43,457 nucleotides of DNA. Source: Escherichia phage JL1. Numbering within the stretch: position 1 is the stretch's first letter; every line of letters starts with the position of its first letter. The notes beneath the pieces are model-generated. The model had not been told where the DNA came from. It searched no databases and worked only from the letters and a program-made list of their open reading frames with translations. The position numbers and the translations under genes are program-made. This document shows, in pieces, positions 3,218 through 41,949 of this stretch. The stretch lies in the sequence record JX865427. The stretch is one strand, 5' to 3'.

Positions 3218-3388
3218 ATTTAATTAATTCCTGATTAGTGGACCGGGGACAATATACCACGGTCCGTATGGCGGCGGGCTATATCAATTCGCAAATAACC
3301 ATGCCGATAAACGCCGCGGTGGTCCAGATCGCTAATACCCAAATATCTTTACGTGCCATCTTGATTACTCCTCTCGTTGATTGGTTGC

Positions 3389-3418
3389 AGTATGGCCTCT
3401 ATGTTGGTTGCGAGTCAA
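3389..3418 (-). promoter_or_regulatory. sigma70-like promoter candidate (TTGACT-18-CATACT) for the phosphoesterase/terminase operon
   Basis: Read on minus strand directly downstream of the terminator at 3427-3448; contains two GCAACCAA motif copies. Confidence 0.4.
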
Positions 3419-3426
3419 GCAATAAA

Positions 3427-3448
3427 AAGCCCGGAATTAACCGGGCTT
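3427..3448 (-). terminator. rho-independent terminator ending the lysis cassette
   Basis: Stem aagcccgg / ccgggctt with 6-nt loop, followed on the minus strand by TTTTTATT. Confidence 0.65.
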
Positions 3449-3464
3449 AATTGTTTACGCTGCG

Positions 3465-16675: not shown

Positions 16676-18100
16676 ATGGCACGATTCCGACGCCGCGAAT
16701 ATCAGAAGTTGATAACCGCGTTCATCCTCAAGCATAAGCGATGCAATATATGGGCGACAATGGGGTCGGGTAAAACTGGCGCGACCATGTGGGCGCTGAA
16801 TAAAATGTTCCAGACCGGCATCCTGTCCCACCAGGAGGACCGCGTACTGGTGCTGGCCCCTCTACGCGTTGCATCCGGCACATGGCCCCCGGAACAGGAA
16901 AAATGGCGCTTCCCCGCCTTGCTGGTAGTAGATGGCACTGGGTCGGAGAAGGACCGCATCGCTGCGCTTGAGAGCGACGCTAACGTGGTTTGTATTAACT
17001 ATGATGTAGTTGAGTGGCTCGTCGAGTATTGCGGCGACGAGTGGCCCTTTACGGTCGTGGTTGCCGATGAATCGACTAAGCTGAAAGGCTATCGAAGCAA
17101 GCAGGGAAGTAAGCGCGCCCGTGCGCTGGCAGCGATCGCACATAAGCACGTCAAGCGCTGGATTAACCTGACCGGCACACCCGCGCCAAACGGGCTGAAA
17201 GACCTATGGGGCCAGACGTGGTTTGTCGACGGGGGCGAACGCCTCGGCAGTAGTTATAAGGCATTCACGGATCGCTGGTTTATTAGCAAGCCTGTTAAGC
17301 CTGGCAGCTTCACTATGCAGCACGCCCCGCTTAAGAACTCCGAGAAAGAAATCCAACAACGCCTGTCCGACGTGTCGCTAACAGTTGACGCGGCTGAATA
17401 CTTCGGGTGTGACAAGCCAATCTACACGCCGGTTGTAGTGGACCTGCCGAAGAAAGCCCGCAAGATTTATGACCAGTTCGAAGCGGAGCTATTTGCGGAA
17501 CTGGAAAGCGGAACAGTGGAGGCGGCTAACGCTGCGTCGAAGACTATTAAGTGCCTTCAGCTTGCTTCCGGGGCAGTGTATAAAGTCGACGAAGACGGCG
17601 AGCGCACCGACGAATGGGTGAAAATCCACGACGCTAAACTGGACGCGCTGGAAAGTATCGTGGAGGAGTTGAACGGCGCACCGTTGCTCGTCGCATACCA
17701 ATATAAGCATGATCTGGCGCGTCTCAAGAAGAAATTCCCGCACGGAGTAGCGATGGGTAAGGGTACGCAAGGAAATAAGGATATGGAAGCGTGGAACAGG
17801 GGTGAGATCCCCATCATGTTCGCACACCCGGCATCGGCGGGTCACGGCCTTAACTTGCAGGATGGCGGACACCACCTTGCTATTTTTTCAGACACCTGGA
17901 ACTATGAGCACTTTGCGCAGATCGTGGAGCGTATCGGGCCAGTTCGCCAGATGCAAGCCGGACACCCTCGTCCAGTATTCGTCTACATTATCCAGGCGCG
18001 CGGCACGCTGGATGAACTGGTCGCCGAGCGTCGTGACAGTAAGCGAGACATTCAGGACGATTTAATGGAATACATGAAAGCTAAAAAGGCGCGCAAATGA
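16676..18100 (+). CDS. SNF2-family helicase
   Basis: Walker A MGSGKTGA, motif II VVADEST, SNF2 signature LTGTPAPNGLKDLW; start set at internal ATG (MARFRRR). Confidence 0.85.
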   Translation: MARFRRREYQKLITAFILKHKRCNIWATMGSGKTGATMWALNKMFQTGILSHQEDRVLVLAPLRVASGTWPPEQEKWRFPALLVVDGTGSEKDRIAALESDANVVCINYDVVEWLVEYCGDEWPFTVVVADESTKLKGYRSKQGSKRARALAAIAHKHVKRWINLTGTPAPNGLKDLWGQTWFVDGGERLGSSYKAFTDRWFISKPVKPGSFTMQHAPLKNSEKEIQQRLSDVSLTVDAAEYFGCDKPIYTPVVVDLPKKARKIYDQFEAELFAELESGTVEAANAASKTIKCLQLASGAVYKVDEDGERTDEWVKIHDAKLDALESIVEELNGAPLLVAYQYKHDLARLKKKFPHGVAMGKGTQGNKDMEAWNRGEIPIMFAHPASAGHGLNLQDGGHHLAIFSDTWNYEHFAQIVERIGPVRQMQAGHPRPVFVYIIQARGTLDELVAERRDSKRDIQDDLMEYMKAKKARK

Positions 18101-18792
18101 TTATCTGGTCATTATTTGACGGCAGCGGCTTGATGATTGAACGTGCTGCCGAGATGGGGCATAAGTGTTATTGCTTCAACTACTCCGAAGCCGATCACGG
18201 GTCGTACCTGGACTACCGGATTTATGGGCGCGGTATCCGATATCGTAATGAGTTTATCGATCTGGACTTCGTGGACCGCGCGATGAATGGTGATTTCGGC
18301 ACGCCGGATATCATTTATGCATTCCCGCCGTGTACGGATCTGGCGGTGAGTGGCGCGCCCGCTTTCCCGCGCAAACGCGCCCGCGACCCTGCCTTCCAGC
18401 TTAAGGCGGTGCGCACCGCGAAGATTGCAGCTTACCTGGGTGATTTCTTTGAAGTGCCGTATATGATTGAGAATCCGCGCAGCGTGCTCTCCACTCAATG
18501 GCGTAAGCCGGACCACTCGTTTGACCCGTGGGAGTATGGCGGATATCTGCCGGAGGGTGACGTACACCCGCTCTTCCCGGAATACATCAACGCCCGCGAT
18601 TCATATCCGAAGCTGACCTGCTTATGGACCGGCAACGGCTTCCGTATGCCAGAGAAAAAGCCGGTATTCGTTGAAAAAGGGTACTCGAAGCAGTATAGTC
18701 GCCTCGGAGGCAAATCTGCCCGCACCAAATTAATCAGGTCGCTCACCCCGCGCGGCTTCGCGATAGCGGTTAACGAGGAAAATTTAAAATGA
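18097..18792 (+). CDS. compact DNA (cytosine-5) methyltransferase-like protein
   Basis: 231 aa; motif I LFDGSG, motif IV FPPCTDLAVSG (Pro-Cys), motif VI ENP; very short region where a target-recognition domain would sit. Confidence 0.6.
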   Translation: MIIWSLFDGSGLMIERAAEMGHKCYCFNYSEADHGSYLDYRIYGRGIRYRNEFIDLDFVDRAMNGDFGTPDIIYAFPPCTDLAVSGAPAFPRKRARDPAFQLKAVRTAKIAAYLGDFFEVPYMIENPRSVLSTQWRKPDHSFDPWEYGGYLPEGDVHPLFPEYINARDSYPKLTCLWTGNGFRMPEKKPVFVEKGYSKQYSRLGGKSARTKLIRSLTPRGFAIAVNEENLK

Positions 18793-19117: not shown

Positions 19118-19146
19118 TTGCATAACCGTATTGGTTGCATTATATT
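19118..19146 (+). promoter_or_regulatory. promoter TTGCAT-17-TATATT with tandem ATTGGTTGCAT motifs
   Basis: Two direct copies of ATTGGTTGCAT, one forming the -35 and one abutting the -10. Confidence 0.55.
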
Positions 19147-19193
19147 GAGGGTGTCCAGTTTGGACGCCCTTTTTAATACCCGGAGACAACACG

Positions 19194-20673: not shown

Positions 20674-20690
20674 GTTGGTTGCACTATAGT
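20661..20690 (+). promoter_or_regulatory. promoter TTGCAA-18-TATAGT over an inverted TGCAACCAA repeat
   Basis: Palindrome tgcaaccaa-tagg-ttggttgca spans -35 and spacer. Confidence 0.5.
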
Positions 20691-20735
20691 AAACGTGTCG
20701 GGGGCAATACAGCCCCCACTAAAAAGGGTAATACT

Positions 20736-37840: not shown

Positions 37841-38941
37841 TTAGGACGCTGTGGTCGCAGTCAGCGTAACCAGTACGCCCGCCGTTTCCTTGATGTGACG
37901 GGTAGGCACTGCCTGTGCGGCCTGGGTCTTACGACGGACTTTAGTATCGCCATCACCCACCGCACCAACGTCCTGAACGGTTGCCGGTGCGTTGTCTACC
38001 TGGCCCTGATCCAGCTCCCAGTTGTCCTTAGTGGTGATATCGGACAGCGTGAACGAGCGTACCCCTTCGATCGGAGTACGAGCGGACGCCTTCAGACGAT
38101 AGCCTTTAACAGCCACGTTGAAGTCGAACTCGCCCTGCCACCAGCGCTCAATGTTCTCGTTACCGCCTTTTTCCTGCGCCAGCATATCAAGGCCGTTGGT
38201 GGTAACTGCAACCGCGCCAGGGACCAGACCCAGCATTTTACCCGCGCCCATTGCATCGGCAGCGGCATCGGAGATAATGAAACGGCGGCCCAGACCATCG
38301 CCCATTACCTGCAGATCGCCGATCGCGAATACCTGCTCGGCAGATGGAAGCGCCTGGTAAGCGATGAAGTTTGCCCAGGTAACGCCATCCATAAACCAGG
38401 ACTTAATCAAAGACGCCTGATCGCCGAACTTAGAAGCCGCCAGCGGGAAGTCTGCCAGGGTCGGGAATGTACGACCGCCAACGCCGTCAACGCGAGCCGG
38501 TTGGGTGTAGTTTGCCGCTGTGTTGCTTTCGATAGCCGCTTTACCCGCGCCGATACCAGCTTTCAGATAGTGCAGCATAATCGCTTGAGTTGCCTGTGCC
38601 GCAATCTCAGCCGCAACGCTGTTAACGTTGGTTTCGATTTTAGCCATCATGGCCTTCGTGATCGCAACCGGACCCACTTTCGCGGAAAGGTTAACCGAGT
38701 TGGTCAGCATACGCGCCAGCACTTTTGCGGTTGCCGGTGTACCGACAGGGGCATAGGCGTTACGGTCGGTAACGAGGTTGGCGATCAAGCCTACGGACAT
38801 TTTTTCTACAACGTCCTTAAGCACTTCACCCGTACCGAGAACAACAGCGCCGTTAGCGGCAGCGTTGAACACGTTCAGGTTATCGGGAATCATTTGCGTA
38901 ACCGCGGTGACGAGTTTACGCTGGAACACTGTTAAAGACAT
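37841..38941 (-). CDS. major capsid protein
   Basis: 366 aa; position after the scaffold gene; AAAGGA RBS; followed by strong terminator. Confidence 0.85.
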   Translation of the reverse strand: MSLTVFQRKLVTAVTQMIPDNLNVFNAAANGAVVLGTGEVLKDVVEKMSVGLIANLVTDRNAYAPVGTPATAKVLARMLTNSVNLSAKVGPVAITKAMMAKIETNVNSVAAEIAAQATQAIMLHYLKAGIGAGKAAIESNTAANYTQPARVDGVGGRTFPTLADFPLAASKFGDQASLIKSWFMDGVTWANFIAYQALPSAEQVFAIGDLQVMGDGLGRRFIISDAAADAMGAGKMLGLVPGAVAVTTNGLDMLAQEKGGNENIERWWQGEFDFNVAVKGYRLKASARTPIEGVRSFTLSDITTKDNWELDQGQVDNAPATVQDVGAVGDGDTKVRRKTQAAQAVPTRHIKETAGVLVTLTATTAS

Positions 38942-39038: not shown

Positions 39039-39740
39039 TTACTCGTCGCCCATTTTAGCAATGATATCCCCGGCCTGTTTCGTCAAGTCAGTGATACCGA
39101 AGCTGTGTCCCATAGTGATTTTCGACTTCACATCTTCGACGACCTGCGTCGGTTTGCTCGGAGCACCACCGGCTGGCGTGCCAGCCAGGACGGATGCAAA
39201 ATCGGCGTTACTACGGAACTCTTTTTCTAGCTCTTCCATAGTCAGCGCGGAGGGTTTGCCGTCCTTCAGTACCCGCACCTTCAAGCTGCCGTCCTCGCCG
39301 TCTTCCAGCGTGAGGCGGTCCATAACGTGGCGTTGCATGATGCCGGCATTCTTACCGAACAGCTTCGAGGCCAAATCTTTGGCAGCGCTGCCGATGGTTA
39401 AGTCGTGGATCTGCTTGCGGTAGGCTTCGATTTTCCCCGATGTGTCCGCTTCATGTTTTGCGAACTTATCCTTCCAGGATTTATCAATCGCTTCGAGGTC
39501 GCCATTTTTGCGCGCGGCGGCTTCCTCTTTCTCTTTCGCAAGGCGCTCGGCTTCGGCGCGACGTTCGGCTTCTGCTTTCTTCTCGCTCACCAGCTTCGCG
39601 TTGTTGTCTTTCAGACCCTTGATCTCCGCCTGTACTTCTTCGGCGGTCATGAACGTGGATTTATACCCATCACCATCGGCAACAAATAAAGCCTTCATGC
39701 CTTCTGGCAACGCGTCATATTCTGCTTTAGTAAGTTTCAT
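39039..39740 (-). CDS. scaffolding protein
   Basis: Highly charged A/E/K-rich helical sequence immediately upstream of the capsid gene; start set at MKLTKAEY with AGGGGGA RBS. Confidence 0.7.
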   Translation of the reverse strand: MKLTKAEYDALPEGMKALFVADGDGYKSTFMTAEEVQAEIKGLKDNNAKLVSEKKAEAERRAEAERLAKEKEEAAARKNGDLEAIDKSWKDKFAKHEADTSGKIEAYRKQIHDLTIGSAAKDLASKLFGKNAGIMQRHVMDRLTLEDGEDGSLKVRVLKDGKPSALTMEELEKEFRSNADFASVLAGTPAGGAPSKPTQVVEDVKSKITMGHSFGITDLTKQAGDIIAKMGDE

Positions 39741-39880
39741 GCTATCCCCCTGGGATTGTGGCAAAGCGGGCCACCCGCTTGACTTCACGCCTTAATATTA
39801 TCAGTGATAAAAATAATCGCAAAATTCGCTTGCGCTGCTGGAATTGGTTGCACACCAACATAGATATGAAGGAAAACAAA

Positions 39881-40195
39881 ATGACTAACATGACCGTAGC
39901 AACTCCAGTAGACGCCGCAATGGCCCGTTTCAATAAAGCTACTGTAGCGAATACCTTTACCTTTCACGCAATGCGTAACGCGGAAGCGCTGAATCTGTGC
40001 CAGAGCATGAATGCTTCTGAAGCGGCAAAAGCGGCGATCAACTCCGCGACATTCGATAATCCGGCTTGCGGCCTGGTTCCGGCATCTTTCATAAACGCCC
40101 TGGTCGAAGCCTTTAACGATTTCATGTGCGTCGATGCCGTTGAAGCTGTATGTGCTCGCTTAACCTCAACCAGCGGCAACATCAAATTTAACTAA
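39881..40195 (+). CDS. hypothetical protein (opposite-strand insert)
   Basis: AAGGA RBS 7 nt upstream of ATG; ATTGGTTGCA motif in the upstream intergenic region. Confidence 0.5.
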   Translation: MTNMTVATPVDAAMARFNKATVANTFTFHAMRNAEALNLCQSMNASEAAKAAINSATFDNPACGLVPASFINALVEAFNDFMCVDAVEAVCARLTSTSGNIKFN

Positions 40196-40234
40196 ACCAA
40201 TCGGGGCGAAAGCCCCAATAATGAGGACACAAAA

Positions 40235-40459
40235 ATGAGACTGACGAAAGATATTAAACATCAGATCCTGGCTAACATCCTGCGCGACCACGAAATCGCA
40301 ACCGAAGCCAAACAAATCATGATGGACTCACGCGATCTGGCGTACGCAATCACGCTGGACTGTATGCCGGACGGCATTCGCACATTCGCCGCGCTAACGA
40401 AAAAGGGGCCATTACGGCCCCTTAATTATTTGCTGCAACTCCAGCACCTGCGCCCTTAG
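40235..40459 (+). CDS. hypothetical protein (opposite-strand insert; 3' end uncertain)
   Basis: GAGGA RBS 7 nt upstream of ATG; reading frame runs through the bidirectional terminator. Confidence 0.4.
   Translation: MRLTKDIKHQILANILRDHEIATEAKQIMMDSRDLAYAITLDCMPDGIRTFAALTKKGPLRPLNYLLQLQHLRP
40403..40419. terminator. bidirectional hairpin terminator
   Basis: ggggcc-atta-cggcccc with A-run upstream and T-rich tract downstream. Confidence 0.55.
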
Positions 40460-40651
40460 CTTCGCCCCGCATTCCATATTTTTAACATCAATCATCAAAT
40501 CTTCGTCGGGGTCCGCAGACGGGTTATCGAACTTGCACGGCGGTCGCAGTGCCGACTCCGTTAGCGGCATCAACGGCGCGTTGCTTGATCCGCACGCGCT
40601 CAGCATCAAAACTACAATCAGGGCGGTTAGGGCGCGTAACATATTTAACAA
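40412..40651 (-). CDS. o-spanin (Rz1-like outer-membrane lipoprotein)
   Basis: Signal peptide with lipobox LSAC, Pro-rich mature region; out of frame and partly embedded in the upstream gene. Confidence 0.6.
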   Translation of the reverse strand: MLNMLRALTALIVVLMLSACGSSNAPLMPLTESALRPPCKFDNPSADPDEDLMIDVKNMECGAKLRAQVLELQQIIKGP

Positions 40652-40853
40652 CCTCTTTCGTGATAGTCCGGTATTCTACGTCGCGGGCTTGTTCGGCCTG
40701 CACGGAGCGCTCAACAACTTTAGTTTGCTGCCGTTGGGCTTTGGCTTGCGCTTCTTGCGCCGCCTCCGCCACTACGCCAGCGCGATAGGAGTCGCCTAGC
40801 CAGAATCCTACCGCCAGACCGATAACCAGTCCAATCGCTGCATACTTAATCAC
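40524..40853 (-). CDS. i-spanin (Rz-like)
   Basis: N-terminal TM helix followed by A/Q/E-rich helical periplasmic domain; overlaps the lipoprotein ORF. Confidence 0.6.
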   Translation of the reverse strand: MIKYAAIGLVIGLAVGFWLGDSYRAGVVAEAAQEAQAKAQRQQTKVVERSVQAEQARDVEYRTITKEVVKYVTRPNRPDCSFDAERVRIKQRAVDAANGVGTATAVQVR

Positions 40854-41949
40854 GCCATAACCCCCGGTTTTTAAGCTGTGCGATAGTCATTAGTTCGCCG
40901 GAATCGGAGAACATCTTCGGCACTTTCACGCCGCGCATAATCTGGTCGGCGCGTTGCACTCCGTATAATTCTTCCAGGATATGGCGCGGCTGGCGCTGCA
41001 CCCATGAGAAGAAATCAGTCTGCGCGTCGACCTGCTCACTCAGCAACCTACCCGCGTCAGCCTTCAGTGCCGGACGCTTACCACTGGGCCAATCTTCCAT
41101 GCCTTTAACCTTCCACGTCTCCGTAGACCGGCAGCAATAATGCAACTTGCCCGGACCAGCGCCATATTGTGATCCAGCCACCACTTTCCCGCCGCGCTTT
41201 CCTTTGGTGTCGGGAGTAACATCAACCGGATAAAACAGGCGATCGCGTAGCTGGCACATGGGAGAAGTATGCGTGTCCAATGTAGATAACCATTGGCGAC
41301 CTTCGAGAATATCGTCATTTGCTTTTACCATTAGTTCGCGGGCGGTCGCCGCATAGTGGTTGACTGCGGACTTAACAACGCTTGAGAGAGCTTGCGCACT
41401 ACGACCGCCGAGCGCGCGCCTCACGTCCGCTATAATTTCCAAAGTCGGCTTACCCTGGATGAATCCCGCGCGCACCTGATTGCCGATCTGCGTCCTGGTC
41501 CATTCTGAAAGTGAATCGGGCCATTGCATCATCGTATTACCCTGGAACGGGTTTTTAATCGCAGTCGCTGCGATCTGCGCACCTGTCACCACGCCCACCA
41601 CCTCGATCGCAGGTACGGCGACCACCGGCTGGATCGCTGCCGTTAATGTGTCGGTGAGATAATCAGCCTCCGTGTCGGCGAACTCCTGAAGGCTTTCAGC
41701 CAACGCCTTAAACTCGGTGCGCAATTCTGATTTAACGGTCTTGTCGATTTGCGTTAGCAGGGTGGAAAGTGCCCTGTTATTCATTGACGATTTGCCATCA
41801 AGCAACTCGGTCAGCTTTCCCAGTAATGTGGGCCGGAACTTCTCCCACATGGACAGCACCCTTCGCGCCTGGTCATTGCTAAGGCGCTGGGTGAAGATGT
41901 GACGGCGAATCATTCGATCCGCCATATATTGATTAATTGTCTTCGCCAT
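40846..41949 (-). CDS. head morphogenesis protein (Mu F / SPP1 gp7-like)
   Basis: 367 aa directly downstream of and overlapping the portal gene. Confidence 0.75.
   Translation of the reverse strand: MAKTINQYMADRMIRRHIFTQRLSNDQARRVLSMWEKFRPTLLGKLTELLDGKSSMNNRALSTLLTQIDKTVKSELRTEFKALAESLQEFADTEADYLTDTLTAAIQPVVAVPAIEVVGVVTGAQIAATAIKNPFQGNTMMQWPDSLSEWTRTQIGNQVRAGFIQGKPTLEIIADVRRALGGRSAQALSSVVKSAVNHYAATARELMVKANDDILEGRQWLSTLDTHTSPMCQLRDRLFYPVDVTPDTKGKRGGKVVAGSQYGAGPGKLHYCCRSTETWKVKGMEDWPSGKRPALKADAGRLLSEQVDAQTDFFSWVQRQPRHILEELYGVQRADQIMRGVKVPKMFSDSGELMTIAQLKNRGLWRD

Follow-up and report, generated by a model that had tools for sequence, protein, structure and literature searches.

The window analysed here, the whole 43,457-nucleotide (nt) stretch of Escherichia phage JL1 (JX865427), carries two small open reading frames (ORFs) on the plus strand between the head scaffolding and spanin genes, which lie on the minus strand. 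The interval is very probably the nmad5 accessory slot of the genus Dhillonvirus, a short plus-strand unit within the minus-strand head and lysis block, in which ORF1 is intact and nmad5 has been truncated by a deletion. A first-pass annotation of the window had placed two small plus-strand genes here, each with a good ribosome-binding site (RBS). The position is borne out by the PHROG profiles of the neighbours, and the sequence does hold an AAGGA/GAGGA box 7 nt 5′ of the ATG of each ORF. Both frames exist (39881–40195, 104 aa; 40235–40459, 74 aa), but the second is not a gene in its own right. It consists of 54 native codons of the 254-aa Nmad5 followed by 20 frameshifted codons. The same annotation had described a GNRA-tetraloop hairpin between the ORFs and a bidirectional terminator after them. 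A stable fold is indeed found at 40203–40216, and the hairpin at 40403–40423, with an A-run 5′ and a T-rich tail 3′, is called terminator-like on both strands. The features of the interval are as follows.

39741–39880, between strands: divergent intergenic control region of the scaffold gene and the plus-strand unit; 45% guanine-cytosine (GC) content; kept in relatives
39830–39852, plus strand: promoter remnant, with a −35-like TTGCGC (39830–39835) and the sole remaining ATTGGTTGCA copy (39843–39852)
39881–40195, plus strand: ORF1, intact 104-aa accessory gene of the SSL-2009a gp08 family (phrog_24635, end to end, E = 4.5e-68)
40203–40216, plus strand: GGGGC-GAAA-GCCCC tetraloop hairpin at the 3′ end of the ORF1 cassette (−11.5 kcal/mol, z = −3.1)
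40235–40396, plus strand: native 5′ part of nmad5, codons 1–54 of 254 (PF18757; 98% DNA identity to the 5′ end of SSL-2009a gp07)
40389–40396, plus strand: deletion junction, at which the 8-bp direct repeat CCGCGCTA is left as a single copy; the loss of 602 bp brings codon 54 next to codon 252, with a frameshift
40397–40459, plus strand: out-of-frame ORF2 tail, 20 codons and stop, from comparison of the translation with full-length Nmad5
40403–40423, both strands: bidirectional intrinsic terminator hairpin (GGGGCC/GGCCCC), terminator-like on both strands (−19.2 and −20.7 kcal/mol, z = −3.4 and −3.7)

ORF2 as a remnant of nmad5

ORF2 matches the PF18757 Nmad5 profile with 54.5 bits (gathering threshold 27; E = 2.1e-14), over profile positions 1–56 of 206 only, compared to positions 1–206 (E = 6.7e-62) for the 254-aa gp07 of SSL-2009a. 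In every close relative, the match to a 1001-bp query spans about 1616 bp and falls into two pieces. Alignment to SSL-2009a places a gap of 602 bp (602 mod 3 = 2) within nmad5; SSL-2009a has CCGCGCTA at each end of the missing segment, the window a single copy. A microhomology-mediated deletion between the two copies of this 8-bp repeat removed codons 55–251, including the strongly conserved C-terminal domain and Lys216 (K216). In alignment A3, which holds 14 sequences, K216 is invariant, as are T213, L217, W221-P222-E223, T245-L246-N247, C250-G251 and P253. All of these conserved C-terminal motifs are within the deleted or frameshifted part and are thus absent from ORF2.

The last 20 codons of ORF2 (TKKGPLRPLNYLLQLQHLRP) are read out of frame through the terminator hairpin, antisense to the 3′ end of the o-spanin gene. 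The terminator is common to the plus-strand unit and the minus-strand spanin genes, contains the end of the o-spanin coding sequence with its stop codon, and is conserved in all relatives examined. As the stop codon of ORF2 (40457–40459) is located beyond the T-tract, terminated transcripts would be non-stop messages. From comparison with its full-length relatives, ORF2 is classed as a pseudogene, a fragment by descent rather than a functional member of the Nmad5 family. A small ORF with a good RBS in the position of a moron can thus be the stump of a larger gene, a question that comparison with relatives settles at once.

The junction is shared by one of 50,697 phage records, PQ843332.1 (P-GXEC-L2P5), with 141/141 identity. 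As this record differs from the window elsewhere by 0.2–8%, the deletion is inherited within a lineage and not an accident of assembly. The assembly of PQ843332.1 has peculiarities of its own. This 88.6-kb “complete genome”, examined at 64072–70212, looks like two concatenated Dhillonvirus genomes, and contains one full-length nmad5 (17344–18105) and one with the same 602-bp deletion. Its segment joins each duplicate 77 nt, a pattern of untrimmed k = 77 assembly-graph overlaps, and genes are fragmented as a result.

The accessory slot and the ORF1 cassette

A megablast search with positions 39700–40700 matched 158 phage records, nearly all of them Escherichia or Shigella Dhillonvirus, the top match being SSL-2009a with 97.4% identity. 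The first 20 kb of the window are 92–94% identical to Dhillonvirus. On these identities, the phage is a Dhillonvirus of the SSL-2009a/HK578 type. The neighbouring genes, all on the minus strand, were assigned by their PHROG profiles.

37841–38941, minus strand: major head protein gene (phrog_247)
39039–39740, minus strand: head scaffolding gene, left neighbour (phrog_206, E = 5.5e-51; aligns with SSL-2009a gp09)
40412–40651, minus strand: o-spanin gene, right neighbour (phrog_5672, E = 2.6e-26; annotated as an Rz-like spanin in SSL-2009a)
40524–40853, minus strand: i-spanin gene, overlapping o-spanin (phrog_2536, E = 4.5e-37; annotated as an Rz-like spanin in SSL-2009a)
40846–41949, minus strand: head morphogenesis gene (phrog_241)

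Comparison of relatives revealed presence/absence polymorphism between these neighbours, with five gene combinations: nmad5 alone (Bas18 Oekolampad, SM_S22), ORF1 and nmad5 (SSL-2009a), a clamp-like gene and nmad5 (EP23), ORF1, nmad5 and the clamp-like gene (CHD5UKE2), and ORF1 with the clamp-like gene (the metagenomic genome L005). ORF1 is present in 59 Dhillonvirus records, compared to 146 records with full-length nmad5, which is near-universal in the genus. These varied combinations support a moron-like accessory slot, as the first-pass annotation had proposed from the position and orientation of the ORFs; the slot is independently bracketed, on the opposite strand and mosaic in content among Dhillonviruses. 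The further proposal, that two genes of accessory or anti-defence type had been inserted here, did not survive the comparison, since nmad5 is too widespread in the genus to be an insert and ORF2 is a deletion remnant.

The morons of lambdoid and HK97-like phages are autonomous promoter-gene-terminator units set between conserved genes. The unit resembles them in its opposite orientation within a conserved late block, in its flanking terminator and, in relatives, a promoter-like element, in the polymorphism of its content between close relatives and in the GC content of ORF1, which is atypical for the genome. It differs from them in that Dhillonviruses are virulent, so that there is no prophage expression, in that nmad5 is near-universal in Dhillonvirus, and in that the promoter looks damaged in the window. 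Of the moron-type bracketing, the terminator is present in the window, whereas the promoter-like site is found only in relatives, its −10 box being deleted here. An Rfam scan of 39500–40800 gave one sub-threshold match attributable to chance. The slot itself is already known and widely sequenced in Dhillonvirus, its main gene nmad5 has been studied experimentally, and nothing categorically new is present in it. An mBio 2026 paper on Zorya, Druantia and ARMADA names Dhillonvirus and is silent on the nmad5 slot.

The clamp-like gene is a third interchangeable cassette, present in the slot in about 16 records. It encodes a 172-aa sliding-clamp-like protein (phrog_3007, mislabelled “RusA-like”) with weak similarity to the DnaN central domain. 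It is located 5′ of nmad5 in EP23 (positions 1507–2019 of locus L021), 3′ of nmad5 in CHD5UKE2 (L022, 2007–2522), where the depositors labelled it “possible moron”, and in place of nmad5 in L005 (2849–3367). A clamp-like gene is also found in the head module of the Kagunavirus fPoEco01 (L023, 1501–2022), again on the opposite strand.

ORF1 is 100% identical in nucleotide sequence to the SSL-2009a copy, and the ratio of nonsynonymous to synonymous substitution rates (dN/dS) between Dhillonvirus copies is 0.03–0.12, as expected of a genuine gene under purifying selection. Its likeness to the gp08 family extends over the full PHROG profile, and this family is uncharacterised. A tblastn search found ORF1 in 70 phage records; the 59 from Dhillonvirus amount to about 40% of the genus, and the remaining matches are to Pantoea phage AAM37 (Dibbivirus, early region) and to Ackermannviridae of about 150 kb. 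The family is tiny, with only 10 clusters (90% identity) among 5.8 billion proteins, and an exhaustive HMMER search returned four representatives at 50% identity in 1.84 billion proteins, one of which is a spurious repeat protein. Scans of IMG/VR with ORF1 gave five loci only, and the comparative work was thus based on GenBank phage records. In one of the Ackermannviridae, vB_EcoM-ZQ1 (ZQ1; 149 kb; region 4014–5207 of L019), the homologue adjoins a gene for a DNA polymerase exonuclease domain and is about 1.2 kb from the gene of a pyridoxal phosphate (PLP)-dependent enzyme (PALP, 7.7e-08, under the Pfam cut-off); this may be the thymidine-hypermodification neighbourhood of ViI-like phages.

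The invariant motifs of the ORF1 family are TPVD, DNPACGLVP and FMCVD, and H29, C63, C83 and C91 are also conserved. ORF1 has no match in Pfam, NCBIfam, PADLOC or the PDB, where a profile search of the PDB sequences was empty at E ≤ 10, and searches of Pfam, NCBIfam, PADLOC and PHROGs linked neither ORF1 nor ORF2 to any known anti-defence protein. An AlphaFold2 model of ORF1 from a 10-sequence alignment has a mean confidence (predicted local distance difference test, pLDDT) of 49.7 and is unusable for fold search. With 49.8% GC, and 53% GC at third codon positions (GC3), ORF1 is atypical compared to the genome (54.8% GC) and to the neighbouring head genes (62–63% GC3), although the shift is modest.

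Phages without ORF1, such as Bas18 Oekolampad and SM_S22, read TATATTGGTTGCACACCAACAACGAGGACACAAAAATG directly into nmad5. ORF1-bearing phages have an insert of about 375 bp between CACCAACA and the nmad5 RBS, which consists of the ORF1 RBS, the ORF and the GAAA hairpin. From these alignments, ORF1 is an optional mobile cassette, seated between the promoter and 5′ untranslated region of nmad5 and the nmad5 RBS. The hairpin is followed on the plus strand by AATAATGAGG, without a T-tract, and is thus not a canonical plus-strand terminator; a weak terminator call was obtained on the minus strand only. It is absent in phages without ORF1. The ORF1 homologues of AAM37 and ZQ1 have different GC-rich tetraloop hairpins at the same distance 3′ of the stop codon, which indicates that the GAAA hairpin belongs to the cassette and is not an operon terminator. 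Because its stem is invariant within Dhillonvirus, there is no covariation support for the hairpin there. This cassette of RBS, a 104-aa protein predicted to be soluble and mostly helical, and a 3′ tetraloop hairpin has been exchanged horizontally between unrelated phages.

The control region and its repeated motif

In relatives, the control region is laid out as TTGC(A/G)(A/C/T), a spacer of 17–18 nt holding a first TTGGTTGC copy, TATATT, and a second copy directly after it. The TTGCAA-17-TATATT of SM_S22 is promoter-like in a consensus scan (9 of 12 positions). Missing from the window are 14 bp (TTGGTTGCGCTATA), seen as a gap against SSL-2009a, that in these relatives supply the conserved −10 box, TATATT, along with the second copy of the motif, and the scan of the window region found no promoter-like site. 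In intact relatives, the unit would be driven by a sigma-70-type promoter overlapped by two TTGGTTGCA copies, a motif of early promoters throughout the genus. A 14-bp slippage deletion between the tandem TTGGTTGC repeats removed the −10 box from the window, and because this box is lost, the whole unit is probably poorly transcribed.

Among ten other loci with the promoter region, seven have two motif copies and three only one. A comparable loss of 14 bp is found on different backgrounds, in the contig L012, in which nmad5 is also deleted, and in phage Over9000, in which ORF1 and nmad5 are intact. Slippage at the repeat has therefore happened more than once, with an uncertain effect on expression.

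The first-pass annotation had pointed to a motif upstream of the ORFs, ATTGGTTGC at 39843–39851, and its over-representation is not due to chance. The window contains 14 exact copies, compared to about 0.3 expected (2 × 43457 / 4^9), and 26 copies with one mismatch, compared to 12.3 ± 3.6, a number reached in none of 100 shuffles. The TTGGTTGC(A) sites of the window, at 3381/3404, 6426/6457, 6829/6864, 9680, 16172, 19114/19131, 20670/20675, 23752 and 39844, are usually paired. The full SSL-2009a genome (L024) has 21 exact TTGGTTGC copies, compared to 1.4 expected, which are mostly intergenic and 20–80 nt 5′ of early or accessory genes on the same strand (cor, gp30, gp36, Lar-like, gp52, gp54/55 and gp08-nmad5). 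No copy in this genome is 5′ of a structural gene. Because the motif precedes early and accessory genes and never structural ones, the ORF1-nmad5 unit would be part of the early regulon of the phage despite its location in the late block.

The TTGCAn part of the TTGGTTGC motif is often 16–17 nt 5′ of a TATAnT box, and the motif could serve as an extended −35 element or as an operator bound by a regulator. A literature search for TTGGTTGCA returned unrelated primer sequences only. Several of the TTGGTTGC/−10-like elements are followed within about 10–30 nt by a GC-rich hairpin (window positions 3404–3450, 19131–19175 and 20675–20720). The hairpin at about 19150–19175 bears a T-run, a hint that the early region may produce very short transcripts or leaders of attenuator type.

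Intact nmad5 and its recurrent loss

The dN/dS of intact nmad5 is 0.12 overall and 0.03 for residues 201–254, from which the gene appears to be under purifying selection. The Dhillonvirus gene, which adjoins capsid genes, has been studied by Yamashita et al. (Commun Biol 2025, PMC11846954). Substitution K216E (K296E in PhiSMS22 numbering) led to escape from the Tmn defence system and its reversion restored sensitivity, whereas a complete deletion of nmad5 was viable and still Tmn-sensitive. Cloning of nmad5 failed, apparently through toxicity. The published anti-Tmn gene of Dhillonvirus is ORF35, located elsewhere in the genome; nmad5 is a site of escape substitutions and not a Tmn inhibitor (PMC11846954). 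The gene of that work (PhiSMA8 CDS7/PhiSMS22 CDS6, equivalent to SSL-2009a gp07) and the remnant in the window share locus, strand, promoter region and terminator, and the first 54 codons are 98% identical in DNA sequence. The window contains a natural 602-bp truncation, compared to the point mutant and engineered clean deletion that have been published. The 334-aa annotation of nmad5 in SM_S22 (L010, 1506–2510, CDS0006) sets the start too far 5′, so that it overlaps the oppositely oriented scaffold gene; the real protein has 254 aa, which accounts for the two numberings of the lysine.

The enzyme label of Nmad5 (nucleotide modification associated domain 5) derives solely from the gene neighbourhood in M6-like Pseudomonas phages, where PF18757 is found in thymidine-hypermodification cassettes (PMC9476957). 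In Dhillonvirus, by contrast, nmad5 stands alone: among the flanking head and lysis genes there is none for an aGPT-Pplase, a kinase, a radical-SAM or a PLP enzyme. AlphaFold2 modelling of full-length Nmad5 from 31 sequences gave a pLDDT of 61, and confidence was confined to the helices at the two termini. A Foldseek search of the PDB with this model gave no hit with E < 2, and the profile matched nothing at E ≤ 10 among PDB sequences, so that no enzymatic fold or solved homologue was found; PADLOC and NCBIfam searches returned nothing meaningful for ORF1 or Nmad5. As neither an enzymatic fold, nor a solved homologue, nor a neighbouring modification gene was found, “DNA modification enzyme” is a name for Nmad5 and not a proven activity. 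A 207-aa full-length homologue, HK542 gp33 (L020, 2195–2818; PF18757, 3e-72), is located between N and cIII in the PL early operon, and homologues occupy the same setting in Stx1- and Stx2-converting phages, far from nucleotide-modification genes. This argues that the Nmad5 family is not tied to hypermodification cassettes.

Truncated alleles were sought with full-length Nmad5 and their DNA was then mapped, which identified six independent deletions, including that of the window.

Window and P-GXEC-L2P5: 602 bp deleted, nmad5 codons 54 to 252, microhomology 8 bp, frameshift
Teewinot: 644 bp deleted, nmad5 codons 35 to 247, microhomology 9 bp, frameshift
SM_S24: 238 bp deleted, nmad5 codons 170 to 249, microhomology 1 bp, frameshift
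L013/L014: about 266 bp deleted, nmad5 codons 156 to 246, no microhomology, frameshift
L015: 125 bp deleted, nmad5 codons 155 to 194, microhomology 7 bp, frameshift
L012: 855 bp deleted, ORF1 codon about 47 to nmad5 codon 212, microhomology 7 bp, in-frame fusion

The junctions have 7–9 bp of microhomology in four of the six alleles (window, Teewinot, L015 and L012). The right end of the deletion is in codons 246–252, just 5′ of the terminator, in four of the six, and as these ends lie within the last eight codons, the deletions are maximal while sparing the terminator and the end of o-spanin. The fusion in L012, a Logan contig (ERR14075358; 1299–1562), joins ORF1 codons 1–47 to the 3′-terminal 43 codons of nmad5.

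Loss of nmad5 would be tolerated or even favoured, as that of a dispensable gene with a toxic product. It is possible, if some way short of likely, that such loss is adaptive, nmad5 and sometimes its promoter being deleted because Tmn or another immune system of the host senses Nmad5 or is made more effective by it, with the window phage as an escape-by-loss variant. Five of the six independent alleles lack the K216-containing C-terminal domain, where the Tmn-escape substitutions were found (PMC11846954), two of the three independent single-copy promoter lineages are also nmad5-deleted, and the host used to isolate PQ843332.1 was a Shiga-toxin-producing E. coli. The engineered deletion of nmad5, however, gave no Tmn escape (PMC11846954), and toxicity or cost in laboratory propagation explains the losses equally well. 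Moreover, only about 3 of roughly 149 loci in GenBank phage records carry a truncated allele, selection on intact copies is purifying, and a statistical association would need a larger sample.

The deletion series also bears on the possibility of two genuine small genes with accessory or anti-defence roles, ORF2 encoding a functional 74-aa protein such as a neo-functionalised N-terminal fragment of Nmad5. The RBS of each ORF, the location of Nmad5 residues 1–54 in a confidently modelled helical N-terminus (pLDDT 73–89), and the occurrence of the allele in two non-identical phage sequences are in keeping with such a protein. However, the other deleted phages keep differing pieces of nmad5 (35 codons in Teewinot; 155–170 in L013, L015 and SM_S24; the C-terminal 43 residues in L012), and no common fragment is therefore preserved. 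The exact 74-aa product is absent from a collection of 15 billion proteins, its last 20 residues are a frameshifted read-through of the terminator with the stop after the T-tract, and the −10 box of the unit is lost. We thus consider a functional ORF2 very unlikely.

A role of ORF1 as a dedicated partner of Nmad5, antitoxin-like or a modulator, that was orphaned by the loss of nmad5 is likewise highly improbable. ORF1 is directly 5′ of nmad5 in the same unit, and the failed cloning of nmad5 (PMC11846954) would fit a toxic partner, yet about 60% of Dhillonviruses have nmad5 without ORF1, and L005 pairs ORF1 with the clamp-like gene and not with nmad5. No Nmad5 is encoded next to the ORF1 homologues of AAM37 and Ackermannviridae (hhalign probability below 1% for the proteins encoded nearby), and a functional ORF1-Nmad5 pair was rejected on the basis of these unrelated neighbours. 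Finally, it is scarcely credible that the locus is really of the intact SSL-2009a type and that faulty assembly or sequencing produced the 602-bp and 14-bp deletions. Both are between short direct repeats, where mis-assembly is possible, and PQ843332.1, the sole other record with the junction, has assembly faults of its own in its 77-nt duplicated joins. However, the two assemblies agree over the 141 nt of the junction while differing elsewhere, the junction in PQ843332.1 is inside a duplicated join rather than at one, a repeat of 8 bp is much too short to make an assembly collapse, and analogous deletions are found in five other independent isolates or metagenomes.

Several points weigh against the reading of the interval as a slot with a deleted nmad5 and a disabled promoter. 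The putative promoter was assigned from consensus and conservation, and the scan of the SM_S22 region gave 2 promoter-like sites, compared to 1.8 expected by chance. Over9000 combines the 14-bp deletion with intact ORF1 and nmad5, and the deletion may thus not abolish expression. ORF2 keeps its good RBS and two confidently predicted N-terminal helices of Nmad5, which makes residual activity possible. In the published work, complete deletion of nmad5 did not lead to Tmn escape (PMC11846954), and any cause proposed for its repeated loss is tentative.

It is conceivable, although we think it unlikely, that nmad5 is a liability gene, sensed by or sensitising to host immunity and discarded by natural Dhillonviruses in at least six independent deletions, two of them in lineages that also lost the −10 box by slippage, with the retained ORF1 acting as a counter-defence or host-takeover factor in the TTGGTTGCA early regulon. 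What is of modest interest at this locus is the recurrent loss of nmad5, the uncharacterised mobile ORF1 family and the early-promoter motif. The TTGGTTGCA motif ties the unit to the early and accessory promoters of the genus and is a testable lead on the timing of its expression. Dhillonviruses serve as chassis for phage therapy, and nmad5 is a published determinant of their Tmn sensitivity. The catalogue of natural nmad5-null phages, including that of the window, thus offers ready material on the role of Nmad5 and on the conservation of its gene as against its repeated loss.

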